From a virus (lineage: Duplodnaviria > Heunggongvirae > Uroviricota > Caudoviricetes): 18,014 nt of DNA. The notes below the pieces were generated by a model. The model saw only the letters and a list, made by a program, of their open reading frames with translations. It was not told the DNA's origin and made no database searches. How positions within the stretch are numbered: position 1 is the first letter of the stretch; the number at the start of each line of letters is the position of its first letter. The position numbers and the translations under genes were made by a program. The stretch is from positions 1-18,014 of IMG/VR virus record IMGVR_UViG_2778261276_000009; one strand, 5' to 3'. This document shows positions 7,724-18,014 of this stretch, piece by piece.

Positions 7724-7746
7724 AAGCACGGTGTTCGGGGTTTTTT

Positions 7747-8679
7747 ATGAGCAGTAAGCTTCATGGTCTTGTCTGGGAAGGGTGTGCCTTCACAGGCATG
7801 ATCTTATCCAGAGTGGCAGTAATGGCTCGCCTTGCAGACTACAGCAATGACGAAGGTGTGTCATGGCCTGCAGTGGAGACCATTCGTCGTCAGATTGGGG
7901 CAAAGAGTGAATCAACGGTTAAAGCTGCGATAGCTGAACTGGAAAAGAACGGCTGGCTGACGAAGGAGGAACGTAAGGTCGGTGGGCGTAATGAAAGCAA
8001 TATCTACCGTCTTAATGTGGAAAAACTCGAAGCAGCAGCAGCGGCGGCGCGTGAGGCATATAAACCGAAAAGAAAAATTAACCCGGCAAAAAATGACCCG
8101 CTAACCGTTGACCCGTCAAATTCTGATGGATCAACCGTTGATAAAAAACAGCCGGTTAGGGGGGCGATGGTTGGCCCCGATCCGTCAGTATTAAAACCTG
8201 ATCCGTCAGATAAAAGATCTTCTTGTCCGGAAACTTCGCAACCGGACGAGAAGACAGCTGAACAGGCGTTTTTAACCCGTCATCCTGATGCGGTTGTGTT
8301 CAGTGTGAAAAAACGCCAGTGGGGAACTCAGGAAGATTTGACGTGTGCGCAGTGGATCTGGTGGCGAATCGTGAGTCTTTACGAACAGGCTGCCAGCGAT
8401 GATGGCGAGATTACGCGACCGAAAGAACCCAACTGGACCGCATGGGCCAATGACGTGCGCACAATGCGGATGCTGGATGGCAGAACTCACAGGCAAATTT
8501 GCGAAATGTTCAGTCGGGTACAACGGGATCCATTCTGGGTAAAAAACGTCATGAGCCCGTCAAAGCTTCGCGAAAAATGGGATGAGCTGGTTATTCGTCT
8601 GGGACGTTCGCCTGTACAGCGTTGTGTGAATCACATTTCTGAACCGGACACCGAAATTCCGCCAGGGTTCAGGGGATAA
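7747..8679 (+). CDS. Putative replication initiation protein with N-terminal winged-helix domain
   Basis: 310-aa ORF; N-terminal region (LSRVAVMARLADYSNDEGVSWPAVETIRRQIGAKSESTVKAAIAELEKNGWL) typical of phage replication-initiator HTH domains; central low-complexity linker. Confidence 0.5.
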   Translation: MSSKLHGLVWEGCAFTGMILSRVAVMARLADYSNDEGVSWPAVETIRRQIGAKSESTVKAAIAELEKNGWLTKEERKVGGRNESNIYRLNVEKLEAAAAAAREAYKPKRKINPAKNDPLTVDPSNSDGSTVDKKQPVRGAMVGPDPSVLKPDPSDKRSSCPETSQPDEKTAEQAFLTRHPDAVVFSVKKRQWGTQEDLTCAQWIWWRIVSLYEQAASDDGEITRPKEPNWTAWANDVRTMRMLDGRTHRQICEMFSRVQRDPFWVKNVMSPSKLREKWDELVIRLGRSPVQRCVNHISEPDTEIPPGFRG

Positions 8680-8723
8680 GTTTGGTTTGAGATTGGTAAA
8701 TGATTTTAACGGGAGAAATTTTG

Positions 8724-9518
8724 ATGGAAACGTTGATTGATACGTTAAAAGCGATGCAAAAGGTGACGTGCACCGAGCTTGCTGCCAGTTTGGGCATTGA
8801 ACCTGCAGAGGCGATTAAAATGCTGAGGGAGTACGAAGAGCTGGGAGAAGTTGTGTCGGTTAATGGTTACTGGTCTGTTTCAGAACGACAAACGGGCGTG
8901 AAAGAAAAAAAAGTAACGGTGTGTAAAGTGGAAAGAAAATCCCATCCGGTGGTCAGCAGAAAAGAGCGTGAGCCACTGAATCGCTGCGACATCCTGTCCA
9001 CACTTGCTCATGGTGGGGCAATGACCACCGCTGAGATTGCAATTGCTGTGGGGCGTGCTGATTGCGTCAGGTCGCTGGTTTCTGCGATGGAAAAGCTTTG
9101 CCGCGATGGCATGGTGATTAAGCTGGGACAGGGGAAGGGGTGTAAGTGGATGCAGGTAAAAGAAACCGGGGAAAATTTACCAGCAGAGCCGAAAGTTGTA
9201 TCGGTAGAGAAAACACTTGGTAAAGCCTTTTCTCAGCCAGCCGGTGTTGCGTTACCAGTACAGGAAGCGGCAACACAGGAAGAAATTAAAACAGATACTG
9301 TGGGGGACATTGTGCAGTCGTTGCCATCGTTCACTGAAACGCGAGCCAATGGCCTGATTTTACCATCGCTGCATATGGCAAACCGCGAACTGCGCCGGGC
9401 GAAAAGTCATGTCCAGAAGTGGGAGCGAGTCTGCGCCGCGCTGCGGGAGCTGAACAAGCACCAGGATATTGTCCGACAGATTGTCGATTCCTCCAGTCGT
9501 ATTGTGTCGGAAAAGTGA
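8724..9518 (+). CDS. Hypothetical protein with two predicted winged-helix-like regions and a C-terminal helical tail; no Walker A motif
   Basis: GGGAG SD 8 nt upstream of ATG 8724 (ORF track gives 8700); sits where a helicase loader would be expected but has no GxxxxGK[ST]. Confidence 0.5.
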   Translation: METLIDTLKAMQKVTCTELAASLGIEPAEAIKMLREYEELGEVVSVNGYWSVSERQTGVKEKKVTVCKVERKSHPVVSRKEREPLNRCDILSTLAHGGAMTTAEIAIAVGRADCVRSLVSAMEKLCRDGMVIKLGQGKGCKWMQVKETGENLPAEPKVVSVEKTLGKAFSQPAGVALPVQEAATQEEIKTDTVGDIVQSLPSFTETRANGLILPSLHMANRELRRAKSHVQKWERVCAALRELNKHQDIVRQIVDSSSRIVSEK

Positions 9519-9534
9519 TTCCTGGGGAGGGCTT

Positions 9535-9954
9535 ATGGCAAAAGTATTTACACAGGAAGAGCGGGAAAAAATTAAAGGGCAGATCGTTGATCTCGTACGC
9601 CAGAGTGGGCGCGAGACGTTACGACAACTGGAAGCTAAAACGGGGGCGACAAGATATCAGATAAGTGTTCTTGCCAGGGAGTTGGTTGCGAATGGTGACG
9701 TATACAACTCTGGCTACGGGTTATTCCCGTCTGAGCAGGCACGTAAAGACTGGCAAAACGCCCGCAAAAAACTATCGAGGGCAAAGGTGAAGAAACCAGT
9801 TGTGGTTGATCCAGACCTTATTTGGTCATTACTAGACGGAGAAATACGTCGTTACGACAGGCGTCATAATATAATTTGTAGTGAGTGCCGTAAAAGCGAA
9901 GTTATGAAGCGCATATTGTCGTTTTATCAGGGAGATGTTCGGTATTTATTGTAG
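9535..9954 (+). CDS. Hypothetical 139-aa protein
   Basis: GGGGAGGG SD before ATG 9535 (internal to track ORF 9469-9954); HTH-like segment TLRQLEAKTGATRYQISVLARELV. Confidence 0.55.
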   Translation: MAKVFTQEEREKIKGQIVDLVRQSGRETLRQLEAKTGATRYQISVLARELVANGDVYNSGYGLFPSEQARKDWQNARKKLSRAKVKKPVVVDPDLIWSLLDGEIRRYDRRHNIICSECRKSEVMKRILSFYQGDVRYLL

Positions 9955-10156
9955 TGATGATATTTAAGAGCATTAATTAATATGTGAATTGACATTTTCA
10001 TGGCATAGGGTAGAGCTAGCGTGGTTGTCCGCTTTGTGCCATTACCGGACATACTGAGCAGAAGGTTTAAAAGAACGCTTTCAGGACATATAGCAAGAGA
10101 GCAGGGATGATAGAATAAACCCAGTATATTTAATGTTTCAATCATGATAGTTTCTG

Positions 10157-10184
10157 AATTAAAGGGGGGTATCCCCCTTTAATT
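10157..10184. terminator. Perfect 28-bp palindrome at the 3' end of the 92-aa gene, likely bidirectional terminator
   Basis: AATTAAAGGGGGG-T-ATCCCCCTTTAATT at 10157-10184, between convergent genes. Confidence 0.5.
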
Positions 10185-10461
10185 ACTTGTACCACTCAGT
10201 CTGAATTTGGTTACTAACTTCATCAGAGAGATTGTACCAATAAACTAAGTTATTGGTTGCGTCTACAACAATAAGTTTATCATCACTATCCATGACCGCC
10301 CTCACAATTTTGGCTGCATCCTCGGCAGAGTAACTACAGTTAACATACCAGTTCGATTCAGTTGTTAAAGCCCAATTTCCTAAAGATTTAATTGCATCAT
10401 ACACAGCCGCATAATCTTTCGTTTTAATGAGGTCATAAGTAATAAATAAATTATTAGCCAT
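10183..10461 (-). CDS. Hypothetical 92-aa protein of unknown family
   Basis: ATG 10461 with GGAG 8 nt upstream; alternating predicted strand and helix segments; not recognised. Confidence 0.6.
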   Translation of the reverse strand: MANNLFITYDLIKTKDYAAVYDAIKSLGNWALTTESNWYVNCSYSAEDAAKIVRAVMDSDDKLIVVDATNNLVYWYNLSDEVSNQIQTEWYK

Positions 10462-10483
10462 AAATCATCTCCAAAAGGACAAA

Positions 10484-10507
10484 GAAAAAAGCGCCTAGAA
10501 AGGCGCT
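10484..10507 (-). terminator. Intrinsic terminator after the DUF3606-like gene
   Basis: Stem GCGCCT-agaa-AGGCGC (10491-10506); the minus strand reads hairpin then UUUUUUCUUU. Confidence 0.6.
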
Positions 10508-10513
10508 CATATA

Positions 10514-10693
10514 TTAATGGTCTTTAAGCCATGCCTGTACTTTCTTAGCCGAATGACCTACAGCCTGTACGGCTTGAACAAGTTTGGCCTCGCTAACTCC
10601 AAACTTTTCAGCCCAATCACGTCTTTCGTAATCCTGTTTGATACTTATTAAATCATTGTCAGGGGTACCGATTTTGGTCTTATCATCAGCCAT
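10514..10693 (-). CDS. DUF3606-like small protein (about 59 aa)
   Basis: MADDKTKIGTPDNDLISIKQDYERRDWAEKFGVSEAKLVQAVQAVGHSAKKVQAWLKDH matches the DUF3606 pattern as I recall it; GAGGAA SD upstream of ATG 10693. Confidence 0.6.
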   Translation of the reverse strand: MADDKTKIGTPDNDLISIKQDYERRDWAEKFGVSEAKLVQAVQAVGHSAKKVQAWLKDH

Positions 10694-11184
10694 TTTACTG
10701 ATTCCTCGTGATACAGGCTTATACCTGCCCATTAGTTATATGACTCCCGTGCCGCTTCGTAAACGTTCAATAATTAAACAATTGACGCTGATCATAAAAC
10801 CAGTTAAGGGATTTGACTCTACCTTGGATATATGATGATGCCACCCCCTTTATATTGTTGTCGGTAATTCACAGGCATTGAACTCATGCTGGTGAGTGAA
10901 AGACCACATAAACGCCCAACATTTAAACTGCTCTCAGCAGCGTTCGCGGAGCAATATACAGGCTTCGTATTCAATCCTTCCCCTACGAGAAATCCTAGCC
11001 GCTACCTCGTTTTCAAGTGTCAGTAAGTTCTTTGTCAGACATCATACAGTCTTGAGCTGGGTGAGGTGCATGGGGGAAGCTGAAGCCTTAACTGTTGAGG
11101 TAAATCGAACCATAAGTGTGCAATTTTTCAAGCCCGGCGCTATTTTAGTCTTGAAAACAATTAGTACGCCCCCAAGGACAACTC

Positions 11185-11877
11185 ATGATCGAATTTATCG
11201 CAGAGCATATAAACACAATAAGCACACTTATCTCCGCTTGGGCAGCATTGCTAACAGCAGTTGCTACATTTTTCTTGTGGAGAGTAACAAGGCTATTAGC
11301 AGACGAGACAAAAAGGATGGTTGACGCATCAGTTCAACCTCACGTCGTTGTGACTCTTGAACCAAATTCTTGGGCTGCTTTTTATTTTGATATCAATATT
11401 GCTAATACCGGAAATGCCCCAGCCTATGATATTGAAATCGGATTTAATCCCCCACTGGTAAATGCTGAACATAGAAAAAATAAAGGTATACCATTTAGCA
11501 AGGTTAGCGTATTAAAAAACGGCCATTCGCTCAACAGCAGTCTTTGTAAGTATGAACAGATTAAAGATCAAGTTTATTCTGTTAGTATTAGTTGGTCTAA
11601 ACAGCCGGGCTCAACTGAAAGAGAGCGGAATGAGTATTCTTATGATATGGCTTCTTTCGAGGGGGTTAGCTACTTAGGTGCAAGGAGTCCAATGACACAG
11701 ATAGCCGAGCAGGTGAAAAAGATTAGAGAAGACTGGAGGCCGATTTCCCATGGAAGCAAAAAAATTAAAACAGACAACTATAATTCAAGTGACAGAGCCG
11801 AGGAACAACGATTACGTGAAGAGTGGTATCAGACCACTGCAAAGAAATGGGATAAAGAAAAGCAAAAAGATAACTAA
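11185..11877 (+). CDS. Hypothetical 230-aa protein with single N-terminal transmembrane anchor
   Basis: AAGGA SD 6 nt upstream; hydrophobic segment about residues 12-33 (ISTLISAWAALLTAVATFFLWRV); preceded by about 450 nt without convincing coding sequence. Confidence 0.7.
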   Translation: MIEFIAEHINTISTLISAWAALLTAVATFFLWRVTRLLADETKRMVDASVQPHVVVTLEPNSWAAFYFDINIANTGNAPAYDIEIGFNPPLVNAEHRKNKGIPFSKVSVLKNGHSLNSSLCKYEQIKDQVYSVSISWSKQPGSTERERNEYSYDMASFEGVSYLGARSPMTQIAEQVKKIREDWRPISHGSKKIKTDNYNSSDRAEEQRLREEWYQTTAKKWDKEKQKDN

Positions 11878-12206
11878 TACAATTGACCTGATCCCCATAA
11901 ATTAGCATACCACAATCTCAGGTCCGCTCTTCGCTCACAGCGGACCTTCAGCTCCGGTAACTTATCCACTTCGTGCAAATTTCTCTCATAAGGGACAACC
12001 ATACTCAAATCTCCCACATTTCAGGAGGTATGAGTATGAGCACGTCACCGTGGAACAAAGACCAGATGGTCCGTTTAAGCGGGATACTTACAATCTAACT
12101 TCTGTTGGGTCAAGCCCTGAAAGCCGCTTAACATGAACTGTCCAACTTTATGGGGGCAGTCCAGTTGTAGCGGCTTTTTAGTATATCGTTAGAGGGGGGG
12201 GTAATA

Positions 12207-12998
12207 CTATACTGGTAATTGCTTTGTGTCAGGCATTGGCTCGGAAAATCTTTCAAAATCGCTGTACGTGCTTTCATCAAAGAGCGAGATCGCTTCAATT
12301 TGTTCGATAGGAATGACGTGTCGAAAATGTTGTAAATTTAATGGTTCGGACTCAAATGTGATTTCTTTGGATAGATAGAGATCATAGTATCGGTGTTGTT
12401 CTATGTAGCGTAGTGAATCCTTATCTCTGTAACCACTAATGAATGGTATGATCTCAAGATGCGCACAGTTGTGGAATTCAACACGTGGTGCTGCCACATA
12501 CCCGATATATACTTTTCTGGATTTTAGTGTTACAAAAATCAGCATCTCTGTGTCAATGGCTTGGATCAATAGGTTTTCTAGTGAATCTTTTGATGCCATC
12601 TCCCTGTAAGCCTTTTGGCGCGCTTCTTCATTCTCCATTTCTTTTCGCGCATCCACCCCTTCAGAGTAAGCAATACAACAAGCGAAAATGATGGTGATGA
12701 CAGCAAAAAGTGGTAATTCCATCACTTTGGTTTCAAGTAACCAATTAAAAAAATGCCATTCTATAGGTTTGTCTCGGAAAATATTGATTATGTGTGGGAT
12801 AGAGTTCAGTAGCCAGAAAAGCATGTAGATCCCGAGCGTCAAAAGAAATCCTTGAGCAACAAAACGACACCCATGCATTGCAACGTAGAAATAGGATGAC
12901 CACCCATTTGTTCTTGCGTGATGAATTCTCGATTGATAGTGATTCTCGGTGTACCAAAAACCACACACGAGAATCACAGTTATAATCAATGGACCCAT
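12207..12998 (-). CDS. Hypothetical 263-aa membrane protein (three predicted TM helices plus about 150-aa soluble C-terminal domain)
   Basis: ATG 12998 overlaps the stop of the upstream 72-aa gene (TAATG); AGGAAG SD; hydrophobic segments near residues 3-15, 46-63 and 96-112; no recognised catalytic motif. Confidence 0.7.
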   Translation of the reverse strand: MGPLIITVILVCGFWYTENHYQSRIHHARTNGWSSYFYVAMHGCRFVAQGFLLTLGIYMLFWLLNSIPHIINIFRDKPIEWHFFNWLLETKVMELPLFAVITIIFACCIAYSEGVDARKEMENEEARQKAYREMASKDSLENLLIQAIDTEMLIFVTLKSRKVYIGYVAAPRVEFHNCAHLEIIPFISGYRDKDSLRYIEQHRYYDLYLSKEITFESEPLNLQHFRHVIPIEQIEAISLFDESTYSDFERFSEPMPDTKQLPV

Positions 12999-13216
12999 TA
13001 AGCAACTTCCTTGTCTGTACGGTTATGTAGTTTTCGCAATTGTTTCATTTTCTTGATGATGTCTGCTTGAACTTCTGGGTTTTCTATGTTCAGGGTGGCA
13101 TTACCGTTCGCATCAACTGTAAGACGATATTTTGTCGTTTGCTCAAGATGGGTGTCAACATGGGTTGCTACAGCACTTGTGTATCGACGAAGCACTTTTC
13201 CGATAAGTGTGGGCAT
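12998..13216 (-). CDS. Hypothetical 72-aa soluble protein, first gene of the two-gene operon
   Basis: GGAGAG SD 6 nt upstream of ATG 13216 (track ORF starts at 13222, where SD spacing would be 0); stop TAA 12998-13000 overlaps the downstream start. Confidence 0.6.
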   Translation of the reverse strand: MPTLIGKVLRRYTSAVATHVDTHLEQTTKYRLTVDANGNATLNIENPEVQADIIKKMKQLRKLHNRTDKEVA

Positions 13217-13231
13217 ATGCATCTCTCCATT

Positions 13232-13300
13232 GTTAGTGACTAACTTTTATTACATGTTATTTACTATATAGACAACGAAAAGAAAATAAAGTTGTAGTAT
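13232..13300 (-). promoter_or_regulatory. Promoter and palindromic operator of the two-gene operon
   Basis: Minus strand: TTGTCT, 17 nt, TAATAA, then perfect 13-bp palindrome GTTAGTGACTAAC (plus 13232-13244) directly upstream of the SD. Confidence 0.45.
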
Positions 13301-13394
13301 CGAATGAACTAGAGGGGAGGGTAAGTAAAATCGCTGCGGGTGCTTGAGGCTATCTGTCTCAGGCATGAACACCAAAAGGCAGATAAAGAAAAGC

Positions 13395-13465
13395 CCAGTT
13401 AACATTACGCGTCCTGCAAGACGCTTAACATTAATCTGAGGCTCAATCTATGAACGGCAAATCTA
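13395..13465 (-). ncRNA. Predicted Sok-like antisense RNA of the hok locus (position inferred, boundaries approximate)
   Basis: hok leader strongly resembles the R1 hok/mok leader, where Sok is transcribed antisense across the mok start region; no promoter hexamers confidently identified. Confidence 0.25.
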
Positions 13466-13506
13466 GGTTAGCCTCTTACGTGCCGAAAGGCAAGGAGAAG
13501 CAGGCT

Positions 13507-13662
13507 ATGAAGCAGCAAAAGGCGATGTTAATCGCCCTGATCGTCATCTGTTTAACCGTCATAGTGACGGCACTGGTAACGAGGAAAGACCTCTGCGAGG
13601 TACGAATCCGAACCGGCCAGACGGAGGTTGCTGTCTTCGTGGACTACGAATCTGAGAAGTAA
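13507..13662 (+). CDS. hok: Hok/Gef-family type I toxin (HokD/RelF-like)
   Basis: MKQQKAMLIALIVICLTVIVTALVTRKDLCEVRIRTGQTEVAVF is near-identical to HokD as recalled; upstream leader GGTGCTTGAGGC (13339-13350) and mok-like upstream ATG at 13450 resemble the R1 hok leader; 3' segment GCATCCTCAATGCACC (13709-13724) is complementary to the 5' end. Confidence 0.85.
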   Translation: MKQQKAMLIALIVICLTVIVTALVTRKDLCEVRIRTGQTEVAVFVDYESEK

Positions 13663-13719
13663 GAGTGACCAGGCGGGAGAGTAATCTCCCGCCACCTCTG
13701 ATGTGTCGGCATCCTCAAT

Positions 13720-13755
13720 GCACCCGCGCTTAACCCTCTTTGGCGTTTTTTTTTG
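13720..13755 (+). terminator. 3' end of hok mRNA (T-run 13746-13754)
   Basis: Long T-run after a GC-rich segment; a perfect 9-bp stem with GTAA loop at 13672-13693 lies just after the stop. Confidence 0.45.
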
Positions 13756-13890
13756 CTTTCAGATAATAAATTTACCAAAATGGTTTACAAAATCATTTTT
13801 TATGATAATTTATTAGTCATGAAGTCTTCATCACAGGTTGTGCTCCGAAAATAGGCAGCCTGTTACTTATAGCGAATCGAGGAATTAACT

Positions 13891-14250
13891 ATGGCACTCA
13901 CTGAATTCGGTAAGGCCGTTAGAAAAGCGAGGATAGATACCGACTGCACATTGCTTACGATGGCTCAAGAACTGGGAGTAACTTCAGCTTTTCTGAGCGG
14001 TTTAGAAACAGGCAGTAAGAAAATCCCCAAAAAATGGGTAAAAGAGATTCAGGCTTTTTTCCTGAAAAGAGGTTATGAGATTAATAATCTTCAGGAATTG
14101 GCTGATGTATCTAATCAGTTTGTTTCCCTTGATGGATTGTCGCAAAATCAGCAAATGTTGGTTGCTGGTTTTGCTAAATCCCCATTAACACCAGAGCAGT
14201 TAAAGCGAATAGCAGAGTTGATGAAAAGTATTAATCATGTTGAGGGATGA
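13891..14250 (+). CDS. XRE-family helix-turn-helix transcriptional regulator
   Basis: 119-aa ORF, GAGGAA SD; HTH segment LTMAQELGVTSAFLSGLETG; inverted repeats upstream (AAAATG...CATTTT 13778-13801; TGAAGTCTTCA 13824-13834). Confidence 0.8.
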   Translation: MALTEFGKAVRKARIDTDCTLLTMAQELGVTSAFLSGLETGSKKIPKKWVKEIQAFFLKRGYEINNLQELADVSNQFVSLDGLSQNQQMLVAGFAKSPLTPEQLKRIAELMKSINHVEG

Positions 14251-14253
14251 TCG

Positions 14254-14736
14254 TTGGAACAATCAGCTTACACATTACGTGGAAATCGTGTTGCACCAAT
14301 GAGTATTGTTGATATAACAACTCGCGCTGTTAACTATAGCGCGATCTTCGACCTTAAAACGTTGAAAAGAAAAAAGCGGTTAGACCATGCATTTGAGTTG
14401 TTGAGTGAATATGGGATAACGCTCAATATCGTTGAGGATCGTGCGTGGACTAAAGCTACATATGATTTGACATCTGGGCATTACGATCCAATTACACTTA
14501 CAATTAGTGTGCCGAATCATACATTTGAGTTGGCATGTAAAGGTGATAGAGAAGCATTATTTGTGCTCTTTCATGAAATCGGACATTTGGTGTTGGGGCA
14601 TAGAGCGTTATTTCACAGTTCCAATAAACCACCTTCGCAAATTGAAGATGCTGAATGGCAAGCAGATTTGTTTGCCGAGGTGGTTTTGCGCGAATTAGGA
14701 TTTTATATGGATCAACTATCATTTGACTTTTTATAA
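14254..14736 (+). CDS. ImmA/IrrE-family (COG2856-type) zinc metallopeptidase
   Basis: HEIGHLVLGH (HEXXH) at 14569-14601; start 4 nt after the XRE stop; TTG at 14254 has a GAGGGA SD, the alternative ATG at 14299 has none. Confidence 0.8.
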   Translation: MEQSAYTLRGNRVAPMSIVDITTRAVNYSAIFDLKTLKRKKRLDHAFELLSEYGITLNIVEDRAWTKATYDLTSGHYDPITLTISVPNHTFELACKGDREALFVLFHEIGHLVLGHRALFHSSNKPPSQIEDAEWQADLFAEVVLRELGFYMDQLSFDFL

Positions 14737-14738
14737 AA

Positions 14739-14760
14739 AAGCCCTGCTGTAACAGGGCTT
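14739..14760 (-). terminator. Hairpin whose U-run is on the minus strand
   Basis: AAGCCCTG-ctgtaa-CAGGGCTT; the plus strand has the A-run before it and no T-run after, so it terminates leftward transcripts most efficiently. Confidence 0.5.
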
Positions 14761-15064
14761 AGGATGGAAAGTCCGATAACTTTCCAGTGCAGATGGAGAA
14801 CCCCACCGCCACACTTGGATTTGACAGATGCAAGTTTAGCGGTTCTCCCAACAAATCGCAACCTGTATGGGGATACAGGTATGCAGGGACTTGCTTGTTA
14901 TGGCAATGAAAATCTGTAAGGAATGCGGAAAACCGTGCGAAATTATTTTTCGTTATTCCGTTTGTATCAATGGAGTTATGCGATATGCGAGGAAGGGGCA
15001 CCCTTTCCCGATTCCTGTTTGTGGTTGCTCCCGAACGTAGAGTTGCATAATGATCTAATCTAAA

Positions 15065-15084
15065 CCCGCTTCGGCGGGTTTTTT
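15065..15084 (+). terminator. Intrinsic terminator, plus-oriented
   Basis: CCCGC-ttcg-GCGGG followed by TTTTTT (15079-15084). Confidence 0.65.
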
Positions 15085-15159
15085 GTTTTACGTATTCTGG
15101 TTTACAATCCACAGGCCAGCCTGAACAACTGGCACCTGCTGCGCCAGCAGAGACAACCG

Positions 15160-15438
15160 ATGGCGCACGATACCAAATTACACAATTCTAATGATTCTGC
15201 TGTCTTTGCCAGCAGGTGCGGACGGCGTTTTCACGCATTCAAATCAGACTGGTTCCAGCATCCTCCATGCACTGAAGAGCAGGCTGAATGGATAATTCAG
15301 TGTTACCGCAGGCGTGGATACGAGGTTAAGAAAGCTCTTAGTCTCGACTATCGTCACTGGATAATCTCAGTCAGACTCCCTTACTCCGAACGCCCACCGC
15401 GTCCGTCCCGCACATTCCAGCAACGGATTTGGAGGTAA
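15160..15438 (+). CDS. Hypothetical 92-aa protein, first gene of the nin-like block
   Basis: ORF ends 2 nt before the DUF968 gene start; weak SD; a TACAAT -10-like hexamer at 15103-15108 precedes it. Confidence 0.45.
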   Translation: MAHDTKLHNSNDSAVFASRCGRRFHAFKSDWFQHPPCTEEQAEWIIQCYRRRGYEVKKALSLDYRHWIISVRLPYSERPPRPSRTFQQRIWR

Positions 15439-15439
15439 C

Positions 15440-16498
15440 GTGCGGGTATTACTTCGACCTGTTCTGGTACCGGAACTCGGGCTGGTGGTCCTTAAGCCAG
15501 GTCGTGAATCCATGCAGGTATTTCACAATCCTCGAGTGCTGGTGGAGCCGGAATCGAAAAGCATGTGCGGCCTGCCATCCGGAGTCGTCCCTGCCGTTCG
15601 CCAGCCGCTGGCGGAGGATAAATCATTACTGCCATTTTTCAGCGATGAGCGGGTGATTCGTGCTGCTGGCGGCGCTGGGGCACTGTCTGACTGGCTGTTG
15701 CGTCATGTCAAATCCTGCCAGTGGCCTCATGGTGACTATCATCACAGTGAAATCGTCATACATCGTTACGGTACCGGCGCGATGGTGTTGTGCTGGCACT
15801 GCGACAACCAGCTGCGTGACCAGACATCCGAATCACTCGAGCAACTTGCTCATCAAAATCTGTCAGCATGGATGATTGACGTCATACGCCATGCAATGAA
15901 TGGCACGCAGGAGAGGGAGTTATCGCTGGCTGAATTATCCTGGTGGGCGGTCTGCAATCAAGTGGCGGACGCGCTTCCGGAGGCAGTATTACGTCGTTCT
16001 CTGGGGTTACGTGCGGAAAAAATCCGCGCGGTGTACCGCGAAAGCGACATCGTACCGGGAGAGCAGACCGCCACCAACATACTGAAGCAGCGCACAAAAA
16101 ATCTTGCGCCGTTGCCTCACTCCCACCAGCAACAGAACCCACCACTGGAAAATACGGTGGTATGCATCACCGTTGATCCGGAGTCTCCGGAATCTTTCAT
16201 GAGGCGACCTAAACGTCGCCGTTGGGTAAATGAGAAATATACGCGCTGGGTGAAGACACAGCCGTGTGCGTGTTGTGGTCAACCAGCCGACGATCCCCAT
16301 CACCTGATTGGTCACGGTCAGGGAGGGATGGGAACAAAGGCTGATGATTTGTTTGTTATTCCGCTGTGCCGTAAATGTCATAACGAACTGCACGCCGGGG
16401 TAAAAGATTTTGAAGAAAAACACGGCAGCCAGCTGTTGTTGCTGATTCGTTTTTTAATGCACGCGAGAAATTCGGGTGTCCTGAAGTGGAAAGCATGA
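15440..16498 (+). CDS. DUF968-domain protein (YdfU-like)
   Basis: 352-aa ORF with GTG start after GGAGG; C-terminal Cys/His-rich motif CACCGQPADDPHHLIGHG...CRKCHNELH typical of DUF968 as recalled; directly upstream of rusA. Confidence 0.75.
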   Translation: MRVLLRPVLVPELGLVVLKPGRESMQVFHNPRVLVEPESKSMCGLPSGVVPAVRQPLAEDKSLLPFFSDERVIRAAGGAGALSDWLLRHVKSCQWPHGDYHHSEIVIHRYGTGAMVLCWHCDNQLRDQTSESLEQLAHQNLSAWMIDVIRHAMNGTQERELSLAELSWWAVCNQVADALPEAVLRRSLGLRAEKIRAVYRESDIVPGEQTATNILKQRTKNLAPLPHSHQQQNPPLENTVVCITVDPESPESFMRRPKRRRWVNEKYTRWVKTQPCACCGQPADDPHHLIGHGQGGMGTKADDLFVIPLCRKCHNELHAGVKDFEEKHGSQLLLLIRFLMHARNSGVLKWKA

Positions 16499-16876
16499 AT
16501 GACTGAACGCATAGAATTTGTTTTGCCTTACCCGCCGACGGTGAATACCTACTGGCGACGTCATGGCAATACGTATTTCATCTCGGAGGCCGGAAAGCGT
16601 TATCGCCGTGATGTGGCACTAATTGTTCGCCAGCAGCGACTGAAATTAAACCTGTCCGGAAGGCTGGCAATAAAAATTATTGCAGAGCCACCGGATAAGC
16701 GCCGCCGCGACCTGGACAATATCCTGAAGGCACCACTGGATGCGCTGACGCATGCCGGACTACTTATAGACGACGAGCAGTTTGATGAAATCAATATTGT
16801 GCGCGGACTGCCTGTTCCTGGTGGGCGGTTGGGCGTGAAGATTTACGAAATTACAGGTGATAACGATGGTGCGTGA
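16499..16876 (+). CDS. rusA: Holliday-junction resolvase RusA
   Basis: 125-aa product with RusA-like [10 protein letters not shown] and LDAL...DD motifs; ATG immediately follows the upstream TGA. Confidence 0.85.
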
Positions 16877-17252
16877 TATTCAGCAGGTTATGGAGCGGTG
16901 GGGAGCATGGGCTGCGAACAATCACGAAGATGTGTCATGGGCGTCAATCGCTGCTGGTTTTAAAGGATTAATCCCGCCGAAAGTGAAATCACGCCCTCAG
17001 TGTTCTGATGATGATGCAATGATAATTTGTGGCTGTATGGCCCGGTTGAACAAGAAAAATCAGGATTTGCACGATTTGTTGGTGGATTATTACGTAGGTG
17101 GAATGACTTTTATGGGGTTGGCACGAAAGCATGGGTGTTCGGATACCTGTATTGGCAAGCGCCTGCAGAAAGCGGAAGGGGTTATTGATGGCATGTTGAT
17201 GATGCTTGATATCCGACTGGAGATGGACAGATACGTAGAACGAATCATGTAG
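16866..17252 (+). CDS. Late-gene antiterminator Q-like protein
   Basis: About 128-aa ORF overlapping the rusA end (ATG 16866, AGGTGA SD); Cys-rich central region; immediately followed by a promoter and short terminated leader. Confidence 0.7.
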
Positions 17253-17256
17253 GAGC

Positions 17257-17286
17257 TTGACCAGACACATTGTCCGGGGCTATATT
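17257..17286 (+). promoter_or_regulatory. Candidate late promoter (lambda pR'-like)
   Basis: TTGACC (17257-17262), 18-nt spacer, TATATT (17281-17286), directly after the Q stop. Confidence 0.5.
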
Positions 17287-17346
17287 CCTCACGCGCCAGC
17301 AAAATCTGGCGTCGGGATTGGCGTCCCGGATGAAAAAGGCGACAAC

Positions 17347-17367
17347 AGACGCGCCAGCGTCTTTTTT
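17347..17367 (+). terminator. tR'-like terminator of the short late leader RNA
   Basis: AGACGC-gcca-GCGTCT followed by TTTTTT; two more hairpins (GCCAG...CTGGC, CGGGA...TCCCG) lie between promoter and terminator. Confidence 0.6.
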
Positions 17368-17525
17368 ATTGTCGTTTGCACTGTCGCATCTCAATGGTGG
17401 GCTGTGTGGGGGCGGAGCGATCCGCGCCGGTTCCTTTTTCCCGGTTACGCCAACCCTGCACAGTTCACCACCATACTGATTGGCGTCAGCAGTGGTGATG
17501 ATTCACATAGAAAAAGGATCATCCT

Positions 17526-18014
17526 ATGGCTATTCAAATCTCAGTTGAAACTCTTTCCCCGATCACCCATAACCAAATCCCTGTCATTACTACCGAGCTT
17601 TTGGCACAACTTTATGGCACCGAAACTAATAACATCAAAGTGAACTATACACGCAATGCCGAGCGTTTTGTTTGTGGGAAACACTACTTCAAATTGGAAG
17701 GGGCTGAGTTGCGGGAATTTAAGAACAAGGTTACTCAAAGTAACTTAGTTGCACCGCGTACAAAGCACCTCATCCTCTGGACAGAACGCGGAGCAGCCCG
17801 TCACGCCAAAATGCTGGAAACCGATCAGGCGTGGGAAGTGTTCGAAAAACTGGAAGACTGTTATTTCAGCCAAAAACAACCACCAGCAGCACAAAACACC
17901 CCAACCCAAAATGATGGATGCGCATTACTGATCCACTTCGATAAACACGGTCAGGTCGACTTCACGGAAAAACTACCCGCCGATGCGATGGTATGCACTC
18001 TGGAACGGTTTTAA
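17526..18014 (+). CDS. ORF6N/KilA-N-like domain protein, first gene after the late promoter
   Basis: 162-aa ORF with AAGGA SD; N-terminal region (VITTELLAQLYGTETNNIKVNYTRNAERFVCGKHYFKLEGAELREFK) resembles ORF6N-type domains found in antirepressor/Rha-like proteins; stop TAA is the last codon of the window. Confidence 0.6.
   Translation: MAIQISVETLSPITHNQIPVITTELLAQLYGTETNNIKVNYTRNAERFVCGKHYFKLEGAELREFKNKVTQSNLVAPRTKHLILWTERGAARHAKMLETDQAWEVFEKLEDCYFSQKQPPAAQNTPTQNDGCALLIHFDKHGQVDFTEKLPADAMVCTLERF

Follow-up and report, generated by a model that had tools for sequence, protein, structure and literature searches.

A Translationally Coupled Gene Pair of Temperate Phages Encoding a Small Cytoplasmic Protein and a Membrane Protein with a Predicted Sm-Like Domain: A Candidate Defence Module

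Introduction

The membrane effectors Cap15 (2TM-beta-barrel; TM, transmembrane) of CBASS (antiphage signalling systems based on cyclic oligonucleotides), PycTM of Pycsar and Cam1 of type III CRISPR systems oligomerise upon activation and disrupt the membrane. They share the same logic, namely, N-terminal TM helices combined with a small sensing domain that is C-terminal and cytoplasmic. Two-gene abortive-infection systems of prophages, lambda RexAB among them, likewise consist of a membrane and a cytoplasmic component that are transcribed apart from the lytic operons; RexA is a protein of 279 amino acids (aa), and RexB has four TM helices but lacks a soluble domain. In type II toxin-antitoxin systems, which occur on phages and plasmids, a small upstream gene overlaps a larger one and the small partner diverges faster. 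Here, we describe a pair of genes that recalls all of these systems. The pair is encoded on the minus strand of a stretch of 18,014 nucleotides (nt) of a virus of the class Caudoviricetes (IMG/VR record IMGVR_UViG_2778261276_000009, positions 1 to 18,014; hereafter, the window). It consists of a small gene for a 72 aa protein (12998-13216) followed by a large gene for a 263 aa inner-membrane protein (12207-12998).

Functionally, the pair seems to resemble the TM-anchored sensing effectors or RexAB, and it is a member of none of these families. Its proteins have no sequence homology to Cap15, PycTM or Cam1 (negative PADLOC search), and the partner gene encodes a protein of 58-94 aa instead of a nucleotide cyclase or a CRISPR component. 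As for RexAB, the pair matches no PADLOC model, and the protein sizes and topology differ. Unlike type II toxin-antitoxin systems, the pair has no antitoxin DNA-binding domain, known toxin fold or conserved operator.

A search of Pfam, NCBIfam and PADLOC found no match for either window protein. An earlier note on this DNA treated homology to a housekeeping, phage structural or lysis family as an argument against a role of the pair in phage conflict; such homology was looked for and none was found. Full-length matches annotated as "unknown function" were identified in PHROGs, with phrog_3630 (E = 7e-75) and phrog_23864 (E = 3e-91) for the large protein and phrog_32583 (E = 9e-55) for the small one. 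Both proteins are already catalogued there as phage clusters, and the small and large families are not linked. In addition, 7 of 130 diverse relatives of the large protein, and not the window protein itself, matched DUF6338 (PF19865), a family of uncharacterised integral membrane proteins, at E ≤ 0.01 (best 1.5e-5); this likeness leaves out the Sm-like domain described below. Membership in DUF6338 was rejected, the one match that was inspected (P0250) having a score of 14.7 bits against a gathering threshold of 26.5 bits and covering only residues 5-94, that is, the TM region.

Organization and Coding Capacity of the Gene Pair

The analysis securely defines the pair as a conserved, mobile, translationally coupled operon for two proteins, one small and cytoplasmic, the other located in the inner membrane with three TM helices and bearing an Sm-like barrel on the cytoplasmic side. 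As the earlier note proposed, the two open reading frames (ORFs) overlap in the stop/start sequence TAATG at 12996-13000. Each is preceded by a Shine-Dalgarno (SD) sequence on the minus strand: GGAGAG (13223-13228) is located 6 nt from the ATG of the small gene at 13216, and AAGGAAG (13006-13012), still inside the small gene at its 3' end, has a spacing of 7 nt to the ATG of the large gene. An alternative in-frame ATG at 13222 would extend the small protein to 74 aa; the 72 aa start is used in the RefSeq annotation of all seven Escherichia coli genomes that contain the locus.

Comparison with a 77%-identical copy in a Citrobacter P2-like prophage gave ratios of nonsynonymous to synonymous substitution rates (dN/dS) of 0.085 (small gene) and 0.04 (large gene). 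Because of these low values, both ORFs are considered, on the basis of the sequence comparison, to be genuine protein-coding genes under purifying selection. The small partner diverges faster; relative to the Pantoea copy, the small proteins are 37% identical and the large proteins 62%.

Structure of the Encoded Proteins

Three N-terminal hydrophobic helices, as reported earlier, are indicated in the large protein by both hydropathy peaks and the AlphaFold2 model, which was built from a 43-sequence alignment with a predicted local distance difference test (pLDDT) score of 85.3 and places helices at aa 2-19, 32-74 and 97-122. TM helix 1 (aa 2-19; 12942-12995) contains the near-invariant G13. 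The long hydrophobic helix 2 (aa 36-72 by hydropathy, 32-74 in the model; 12783-12893) contains G43 and is preceded by a conserved cytoplasmic patch, R29/G32-W33/Y36. TM helix 3 (aa 93-112; 12663-12722) is continued by a charged cytoplasmic helical linker (aa 113-149). Over 130 diverse members of the family, the mean number of lysine and arginine residues is 3.5 in loop 1, 1.45 in loop 2 and 4.4 after TM helix 3. Since positive charges are distributed in this way, the predicted topology is N-out/C-in, with the Sm-like barrel on the cytoplasmic side.

The soluble part of the large protein, in which the earlier note recognised no motif, is predicted to form a cytoplasmic Sm/LSm-like domain (aa 139-250; 12249-12584). 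In the model, an N-terminal alpha-helix is followed by five strongly bent antiparallel beta-strands arranged as a small barrel, which corresponds to the Sm/LSm fold. The sequence identity of this domain to Sm/LSm-fold proteins (eukaryotic Sm/LSm, archaeal SmAP, bacterial Hfq and Rof/YaeO) is 12-18%. In contrast to those proteins, the domain is fused to three TM helices, bears the invariant motifs KSRKVYxG and SGYR of its own instead of Sm1/Sm2, and has an insertion of about 23 residues between beta4 and beta5 (aa 204-226). Neither Sm1/Sm2 motifs nor Pfam LSM/Hfq matches were detected in the window protein or its 130 relatives, whose conserved residues form other motifs. The family-defining ones are TLKSRKVYxG (aa 157-166) and PxxSGYRDKD (aa 185-194); among the 130 members, the near-invariant residues are K162, Y164, G166, P185, S188, G189, R191 and Y204 in the barrel and G13, G32, Y36 and G43 in the membrane part. 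Searches against PDB with the 43- and 130-sequence profiles returned noise and a weak match to Rof/YaeO only, and a BFVD structure search found only weak matches to unnamed small viral proteins. No natural fusion with the small protein was found among the longer members of the family, which owe their additional residues to inserted TM or loop sequence.

The small protein is basic (isoelectric point, pI, 9.7), non-hydrophobic and cytoplasmic. Its AlphaFold2 model (pLDDT 66) shows a low-confidence N-terminal segment of 25 aa, a beta-hairpin (aa 32-42) and a long helix (aa 47-71), and the conserved core of the protein is formed by the hairpin, with the motif VDANGNATLN, and the subsequent helix. 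Small ORFs from E. coli through Acidobacteria align on the common core h.h[DN]..G.h.hN....V...h..L. The small protein has no Pfam or PDB sequence relatives. Its VD..G...N pattern was considered as a possible AbrB/MazE-like half-domain; no Pfam or PDB profile supports this, and the AlphaFold2 model shows, at modest confidence, only a hairpin and a helix.

The small proteins of Bryobacterales and other Acidobacteriota (loci L065-L083 of our set, in which each locus has an L number) lack the N-terminal segment and have instead a conserved C-terminal tail (…ERFRGKPGVTFVRPVRQRD).

Distribution and Conservation of the Pair

A word-indexed search identified 115 clusters of homologues of the large protein. 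Profile search of 1.84 billion representatives extended this number to 2,927 clusters at E ≤ 1e-3 and 2,155 clusters at E ≤ 1e-10, with family clusters counted at 50% identity. Nearly all members are full-length proteins of 230-320 aa. In a scan of species-representative genomes, the large protein was found in Gamma- and Betaproteobacteria, Acidobacteriota (Bryobacterales), Bacteroidota, Cyanobacteria and Planctomycetota. Single-sequence search with the small protein found 10 clusters only, which gives it an apparently narrow spread. Inspection of the DNA upstream of the large gene showed how widely the pair is kept: an ORF of 41-108 aa ends a few nt from the large-gene start in 78 of 84 loci of species-representative genomes and in 78 of 80 viral contigs, the latter being the best 80 of the 190 IMG/VR contigs that encode a relative. 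The conservation of the pair in other genomes, which the earlier note proposed to check, is thus evident from a homologous small ORF directly upstream. Co-orientation and translational coupling of the two genes are retained from Enterobacterales through Acidobacteriota. In view of this large family and the persistence of the pair across phyla, the label "orphan" given to the operon in the earlier note is incorrect.

Within E. coli, the clade of the window copy is very rare, with carriers making up 7 of 5,426 complete genomes. The nucleotide similarity of the window copy to the P2-borne copy stops at the gene boundaries; therefore, the mobile unit essentially consists of the two genes and a short leader.

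Genomic Context

The best 80 viral contigs reveal two preferred locations of the pair. It occupies the hotspot between the gpA and portal genes of P2-like phages in 44 of 80 contigs and lies in lambdoid phages in 24 of 80, either in the nin region or, more often, between Q and the holin gene; in three contigs, it is near the tape-measure gene. The closest relatives (83% identity; Citrobacter, Enterobacter, E. coli) are in the gpA-portal location, and so are copies with identity down to 29% from Chania, Pantoea, Salmonella diarizonae, Edwardsiella, Photorhabdus and Symbiopectobacterium. The relatives placed in the P2 hotspot include L002, L010, L015, L018, L043, L046, L048, L053, L092-L098 and those of phages SEN5 and ST15-OXA48phi14.1. 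Sequenced phages with the pair include Salmonella SEN4 and SEN5, Klebsiella ST15-OXA48phi14.1, Pseudoalteromonas C5a and Cronobacter phiES15.

The window copy itself is outside the P2 hotspot. The window represents a Rac-like lambdoid prophage with an integration site adjoining potC, and its gene order is int, xis, exo, dicB, cI-like repressor, cro, ydaT, replication genes, DUF977, cargo stretch, DUF968, rusA and Q. The pair is located inside the cargo stretch on the nin side, antisense to the rightward phage operon. It lies between the replication genes and DUF968/RusA/Q, in agreement with the slot between replication and nin/Q genes assigned to it in the earlier note. The GC content of the pair (40.4%) is indeed lower than that of the window outside 9900-14750 (48.1%), as previously judged by eye; this is not specific to the pair, the entire 9900-14750 cargo stretch having a GC content of 40.9%.

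In three inspected hotspot loci, the neighbours of the pair include Septu PtuA/PtuB (E = 2.8e-107 and 3.7e-77), bSEFIR (E = 6.9e-103) and a fragmented HEC-06/GmrSD-like gene; these defence neighbours occupy positions 7552-9470 of L002, 5059-6492 of L101 and 6052-7794 of L105. The pair is always the gpA-proximal element in the inspected P2-type hotspots.

Thirty-one plasmids, 25 of them from Salmonella, also carry the pair, and megaplasmids are among the carriers. The Salmonella plasmids have a distant allele, with 24% identity of the large protein. In the one plasmid that was inspected, the IncC conjugative plasmid pSTY1-2010K-1587 (L104, 4791-5789), it sits between a RecD-like AAA ATPase and a DNA methyltransferase, near the mer operon.

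Possible Function of the Pair

Judging by location and architecture, the pair may be a self-contained mobile two-gene cassette of temperate phages and some conjugative plasmids that acts as an anti-phage defence or exclusion module. This is the reading that we favour, tentatively, as its probability falls somewhat short of an even chance. The earlier note proposed a membrane-acting exclusion or abortive-infection effector with a small regulator; the context fits defence or exclusion, and the part of the proposal in which the regulator binds a palindromic operator does not hold (see below). Defence is suggested by the conservation of the pair, its rarity in E. coli, low GC content, hotspot placement and defence-gene neighbours. 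The gpA-gpQ interval is a hyper-variable hotspot of P2-like phages that contains tin, old and many validated defence systems (Rousset et al. 2022, PMC9122126), and 6 of 8 randomly picked unknown loci in P4 hotspots protected against phage (PMC13586616).

In a module of this kind, the large protein would be the effector and would oligomerise, possibly via the Sm-like domain as Sm proteins do. A ring of 6-7 subunits, bringing together 18-21 TM helices, could perturb the inner membrane or gate it. The binding partner of the cytoplasmic domain would be the small protein, serving either as a stoichiometric, antitoxin-like inhibitor or as an adaptor that senses the incoming phage. Infection would then release or activate the effector, so that the membrane is depolarised or the infection is blocked.

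Soluble Sm, Hfq and WYL barrels bind RNA or single-stranded DNA. According to a bolder proposal, which is quite doubtful, the large protein would be the first membrane-tethered immune effector with an Sm/LSm fold: a ring of barrels would sense phage nucleic acid or protein and gate a pore of 18-21 TM helices, the co-evolving small protein would be its plug or trigger adaptor, and the roughly 2,900 clusters would form a broad new defence family moving among P2-like phages, lambdoid phages and IncC plasmids.

Several observations weigh against a defence function. In PADLOC-DB 2.0.0, the window proteins have no match at E ≤ 1, and only two stray weak matches appeared among the 130 relatives. A search of the literature for the accessions, the PHROGs, the DUF name or a defence protein combining TM helices with an Sm-like domain found no description or phenotype, though one may exist. 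Machine-learning predictors score only 15-32% of unknown P2 hotspot proteins as antiviral, and the P2 hotspot also carries non-defence cargo, such as partition systems and cytolethal distending toxin (PMC9122126). Many lambdoid phages have the pair immediately behind Q and in the direction of the late operon, a location that is awkward for a suicide effector, and the beta4-beta5 insertion might hinder a canonical Sm ring. Finally, many chromosomal copies (Photorhabdus, Bryobacterales, Neisseria, Methylophilus) have ordinary metabolic or envelope neighbours and, with the limited query set used, no phage hallmark. In Bryobacterales, the synteny is conserved: the pair is downstream of a GT2 glycosyltransferase of about 780 aa and is accompanied by an RrnaAD rRNA dimethylase. 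A general association of the chromosomal copies with defence islands was considered and rejected, as the neighbour census was heterogeneous and consisted mostly of housekeeping genes; the association is limited to phage and plasmid copies.

The chromosomal loci are also the ground for the alternative that survives best, which we regard as unlikely: a physiological membrane module outside phage conflict that would act as a lysogenic-conversion gene in phages; one example would be a device for envelope stress or ion homeostasis in which a small subunit is regulatory. It agrees with the size of the family (2,927 clusters in several phyla), with the many loci that have housekeeping neighbours and no phage hallmark, and with the GT2/RrnaAD synteny of Bryobacterales. 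The weakly similar DUF6338 proteins are described as widely conserved, and in Pseudomonas stutzeri a DUF6338 gene is reported to be in an operon with novel small proteins (PMC10433244). Three TM helices joined to an Sm-like barrel further recall MscS-type channels; no supporting evidence was obtained, the large protein showing neither a Pfam MS_channel match nor structural similarity to TM3 and the beta-domain of MscS.

Non-lethal superinfection exclusion is improbable, more so than a physiological role. In that case, the membrane protein would stop incoming phages at genome entry or at an early membrane step (cf. SieA, Imm and HK97 gp15), with the small protein as a cofactor. An inner-membrane protein of temperate phages transcribed, in the window, independently of the phage operons would suit such a function, as would a copy in Pseudoalteromonas phage C5a near the repressor gene, on the same strand and with one opposite-strand ORF in between. 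Expression from the late operon in the Q-lysis slot is compatible with exclusion as well. However, to our knowledge, the known exclusion proteins are products of single genes; moreover, the conserved part of the large protein is the cytoplasmic Sm-like domain, not the periplasmic loops, and non-phage chromosomal loci and conjugative plasmids have the pair as well.

A shade less probable again is an addiction module resembling toxin-antitoxin systems, which would stabilise the prophage or plasmid and be composed of a labile small antitoxin and a membrane toxin with no dedicated anti-phage role. The order of the genes (small gene first), the stop/start overlap and the faster evolution of the small partner are those of type II bicistronic modules. 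Conjugative plasmids of the IncC type and megaplasmids carry the pair, and in the window it adjoins another toxin-antitoxin locus, hok/sok. In addition, the large gene is broken by a frameshift or stop codon in 10 of 84 loci (L033, L036, L038, L041, L042, L053, L057, L060, L074 and L089), in at least six of which the upstream small ORF is still open. Such asymmetric decay was examined as a toxin-antitoxin signature and found uninformative, since the excess of broken large genes is what a 3.6-fold larger mutational target predicts; it is consistent with a dispensable or costly gene and equally with the gene-length ratio. Against an addiction module, the small protein has no helix-turn-helix (HTH), ribbon-helix-helix (RHH) or AbrB-type DNA-binding domain, no operator is conserved, and neither protein matches a known toxin or antitoxin family.

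Upstream and Downstream Regions

A perfect 6+1+6 palindrome, GTTAGTGACTAAC, is present at 13232-13244 in the 5' leader, exact and unique in the window, and the earlier note regarded it as the operator of the small protein; its significance is doubtful. The window contains 10 perfect palindromes of this format against 4.5 ± 2.1 in block shuffles, a mild general excess. In L092, the P2-borne copy with 77% identity and the nearest homologous locus, the counterpart is GTTAATCAGTAGC, in which the dyad symmetry is lost, and the dyad is absent in more distant loci. Because its frequency is unremarkable and its symmetry is not retained in L092, the palindrome is not treated as an operator. The small protein as a DNA-binding autoregulator acting on this 13-bp palindrome is therefore highly improbable: although the palindrome lies between the candidate -10 and the SD sequence, a common operator position, and the protein is basic, Pfam and PDB profile searches found no DNA-binding domain (HTH, RHH, AbrB or Phd) among 52 small proteins, and the core of the protein is kept in loci with wholly different upstream DNA.

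Since hok/sok, the next locus upstream, begins at 13338 and is encoded on the opposite strand, the pair needs its own promoter. The -35/-10 pair suggested earlier, TTGTCT (13270-13275) and TAATAA (13247-13252) with a 17-bp spacer, fits the consensus at only four of six and three of six positions, and a sigma-70 promoter scan called neither it nor any other site upstream of the small gene. The promoter is narrowed to the private upstream region on the minus strand (13245-13337). A -10-like sequence, TATAGT at 13263-13268, is a better-conserved candidate (TATAGT in L092 and TACAGT in L098). A stretch of about 90 bp at 13313-13400, common to more than 3,000 E. coli genomes, marks the right-hand limit of the private DNA of the pair.

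Downstream, a strong imperfect hairpin (12120-12177) is located 30 nt 3' of the stop codon of the large gene; its predicted folding energy is -32.1 kcal/mol (z = -4.6), and none of 200 shuffled sequences was as stable. The T-run is good on the plus strand and consists only of UUU on the minus strand. The hairpin is a possible bidirectional terminator.

Other Loci of the Window

The cargo stretch further contains a DUF3606/DUF8453 block, hok/sok and an HTH-ImmA pair. The hok/sok type I toxin-antitoxin locus (13338-13664, plus strand) is directly upstream of the pair and divergent from it; the segment 13338-13512 matches Rfam sok (96 bits), and the segment 13450-13662 includes a Hok/Gef ORF.

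The block at 9983-11937 encodes a 92 aa ORF and a DUF3606 protein on the minus strand and a 230 aa DUF8453 protein on the plus strand; for none of these three was a PADLOC or NCBIfam match found. The block was found again, with 95% identity, in E. coli locus L099, in a P2-like prophage between the tail-fibre assembly and tail sheath genes, a position that we take to be the P2 Z/fun accessory slot. In view of this recurrence, the lambdoid cargo region is a patchwork of modules that travel in P2 hotspots too.

Between the DUF8453 gene and the pair, a stretch of about 130 bp (11981-12110) shows a 91-95% match to DNA of many E. coli islands that overlaps genes annotated as integrase or partial integrase; in L103, its counterpart adjoins a nucleotidyltransferase and SLATT pair near bioA/ybhB. 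The stretch looks like a recombination scar. It includes a 22-codon ORF (about 12030-12098, plus strand) with a strong AGGAGG SD sequence.

Two further loci are on the plus strand. An HTH gene (119 aa) and a gene for an ImmA/IrrE-type metallopeptidase (160 aa), both identified by weak Pfam matches, lie at 13891-14736 between hok and the nin genes and may represent a regulator/anti-repressor module or a further cargo system. Just 3' of the Q antiterminator gene, the region 17280-17475 matches Rfam isrK (79 bits), C4 antisense RNA (74 bits) and the a1/b1 target (52 bits); this resembles an antisense immunity element of the P1/P7 type, placed in a late-control region of lambdoid kind.

Conclusions

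The pair is widely conserved and is a good candidate for a new defence system. At least six bacterial phyla contain the family, and its carriers also include phages and plasmids of Enterobacterales with clinical relevance, among them IncC plasmids of Salmonella and a prophage of Klebsiella ST15-OXA48. Should the pair have no role in defence, it remains a membrane module that is widespread and uncharacterised and whose small-protein partner is obligate, a type that surveys of small proteins usually overlook. If it is protective, it would represent a compact defence family of about 1 kb whose architecture, a three-TM anchor, a cytoplasmic Sm-like barrel and a partner of about 70 aa, is absent from the described systems. 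This would provide a function for thousands of "hypothetical" proteins and three PHROGs and would reveal a new use of the ancient Sm fold.

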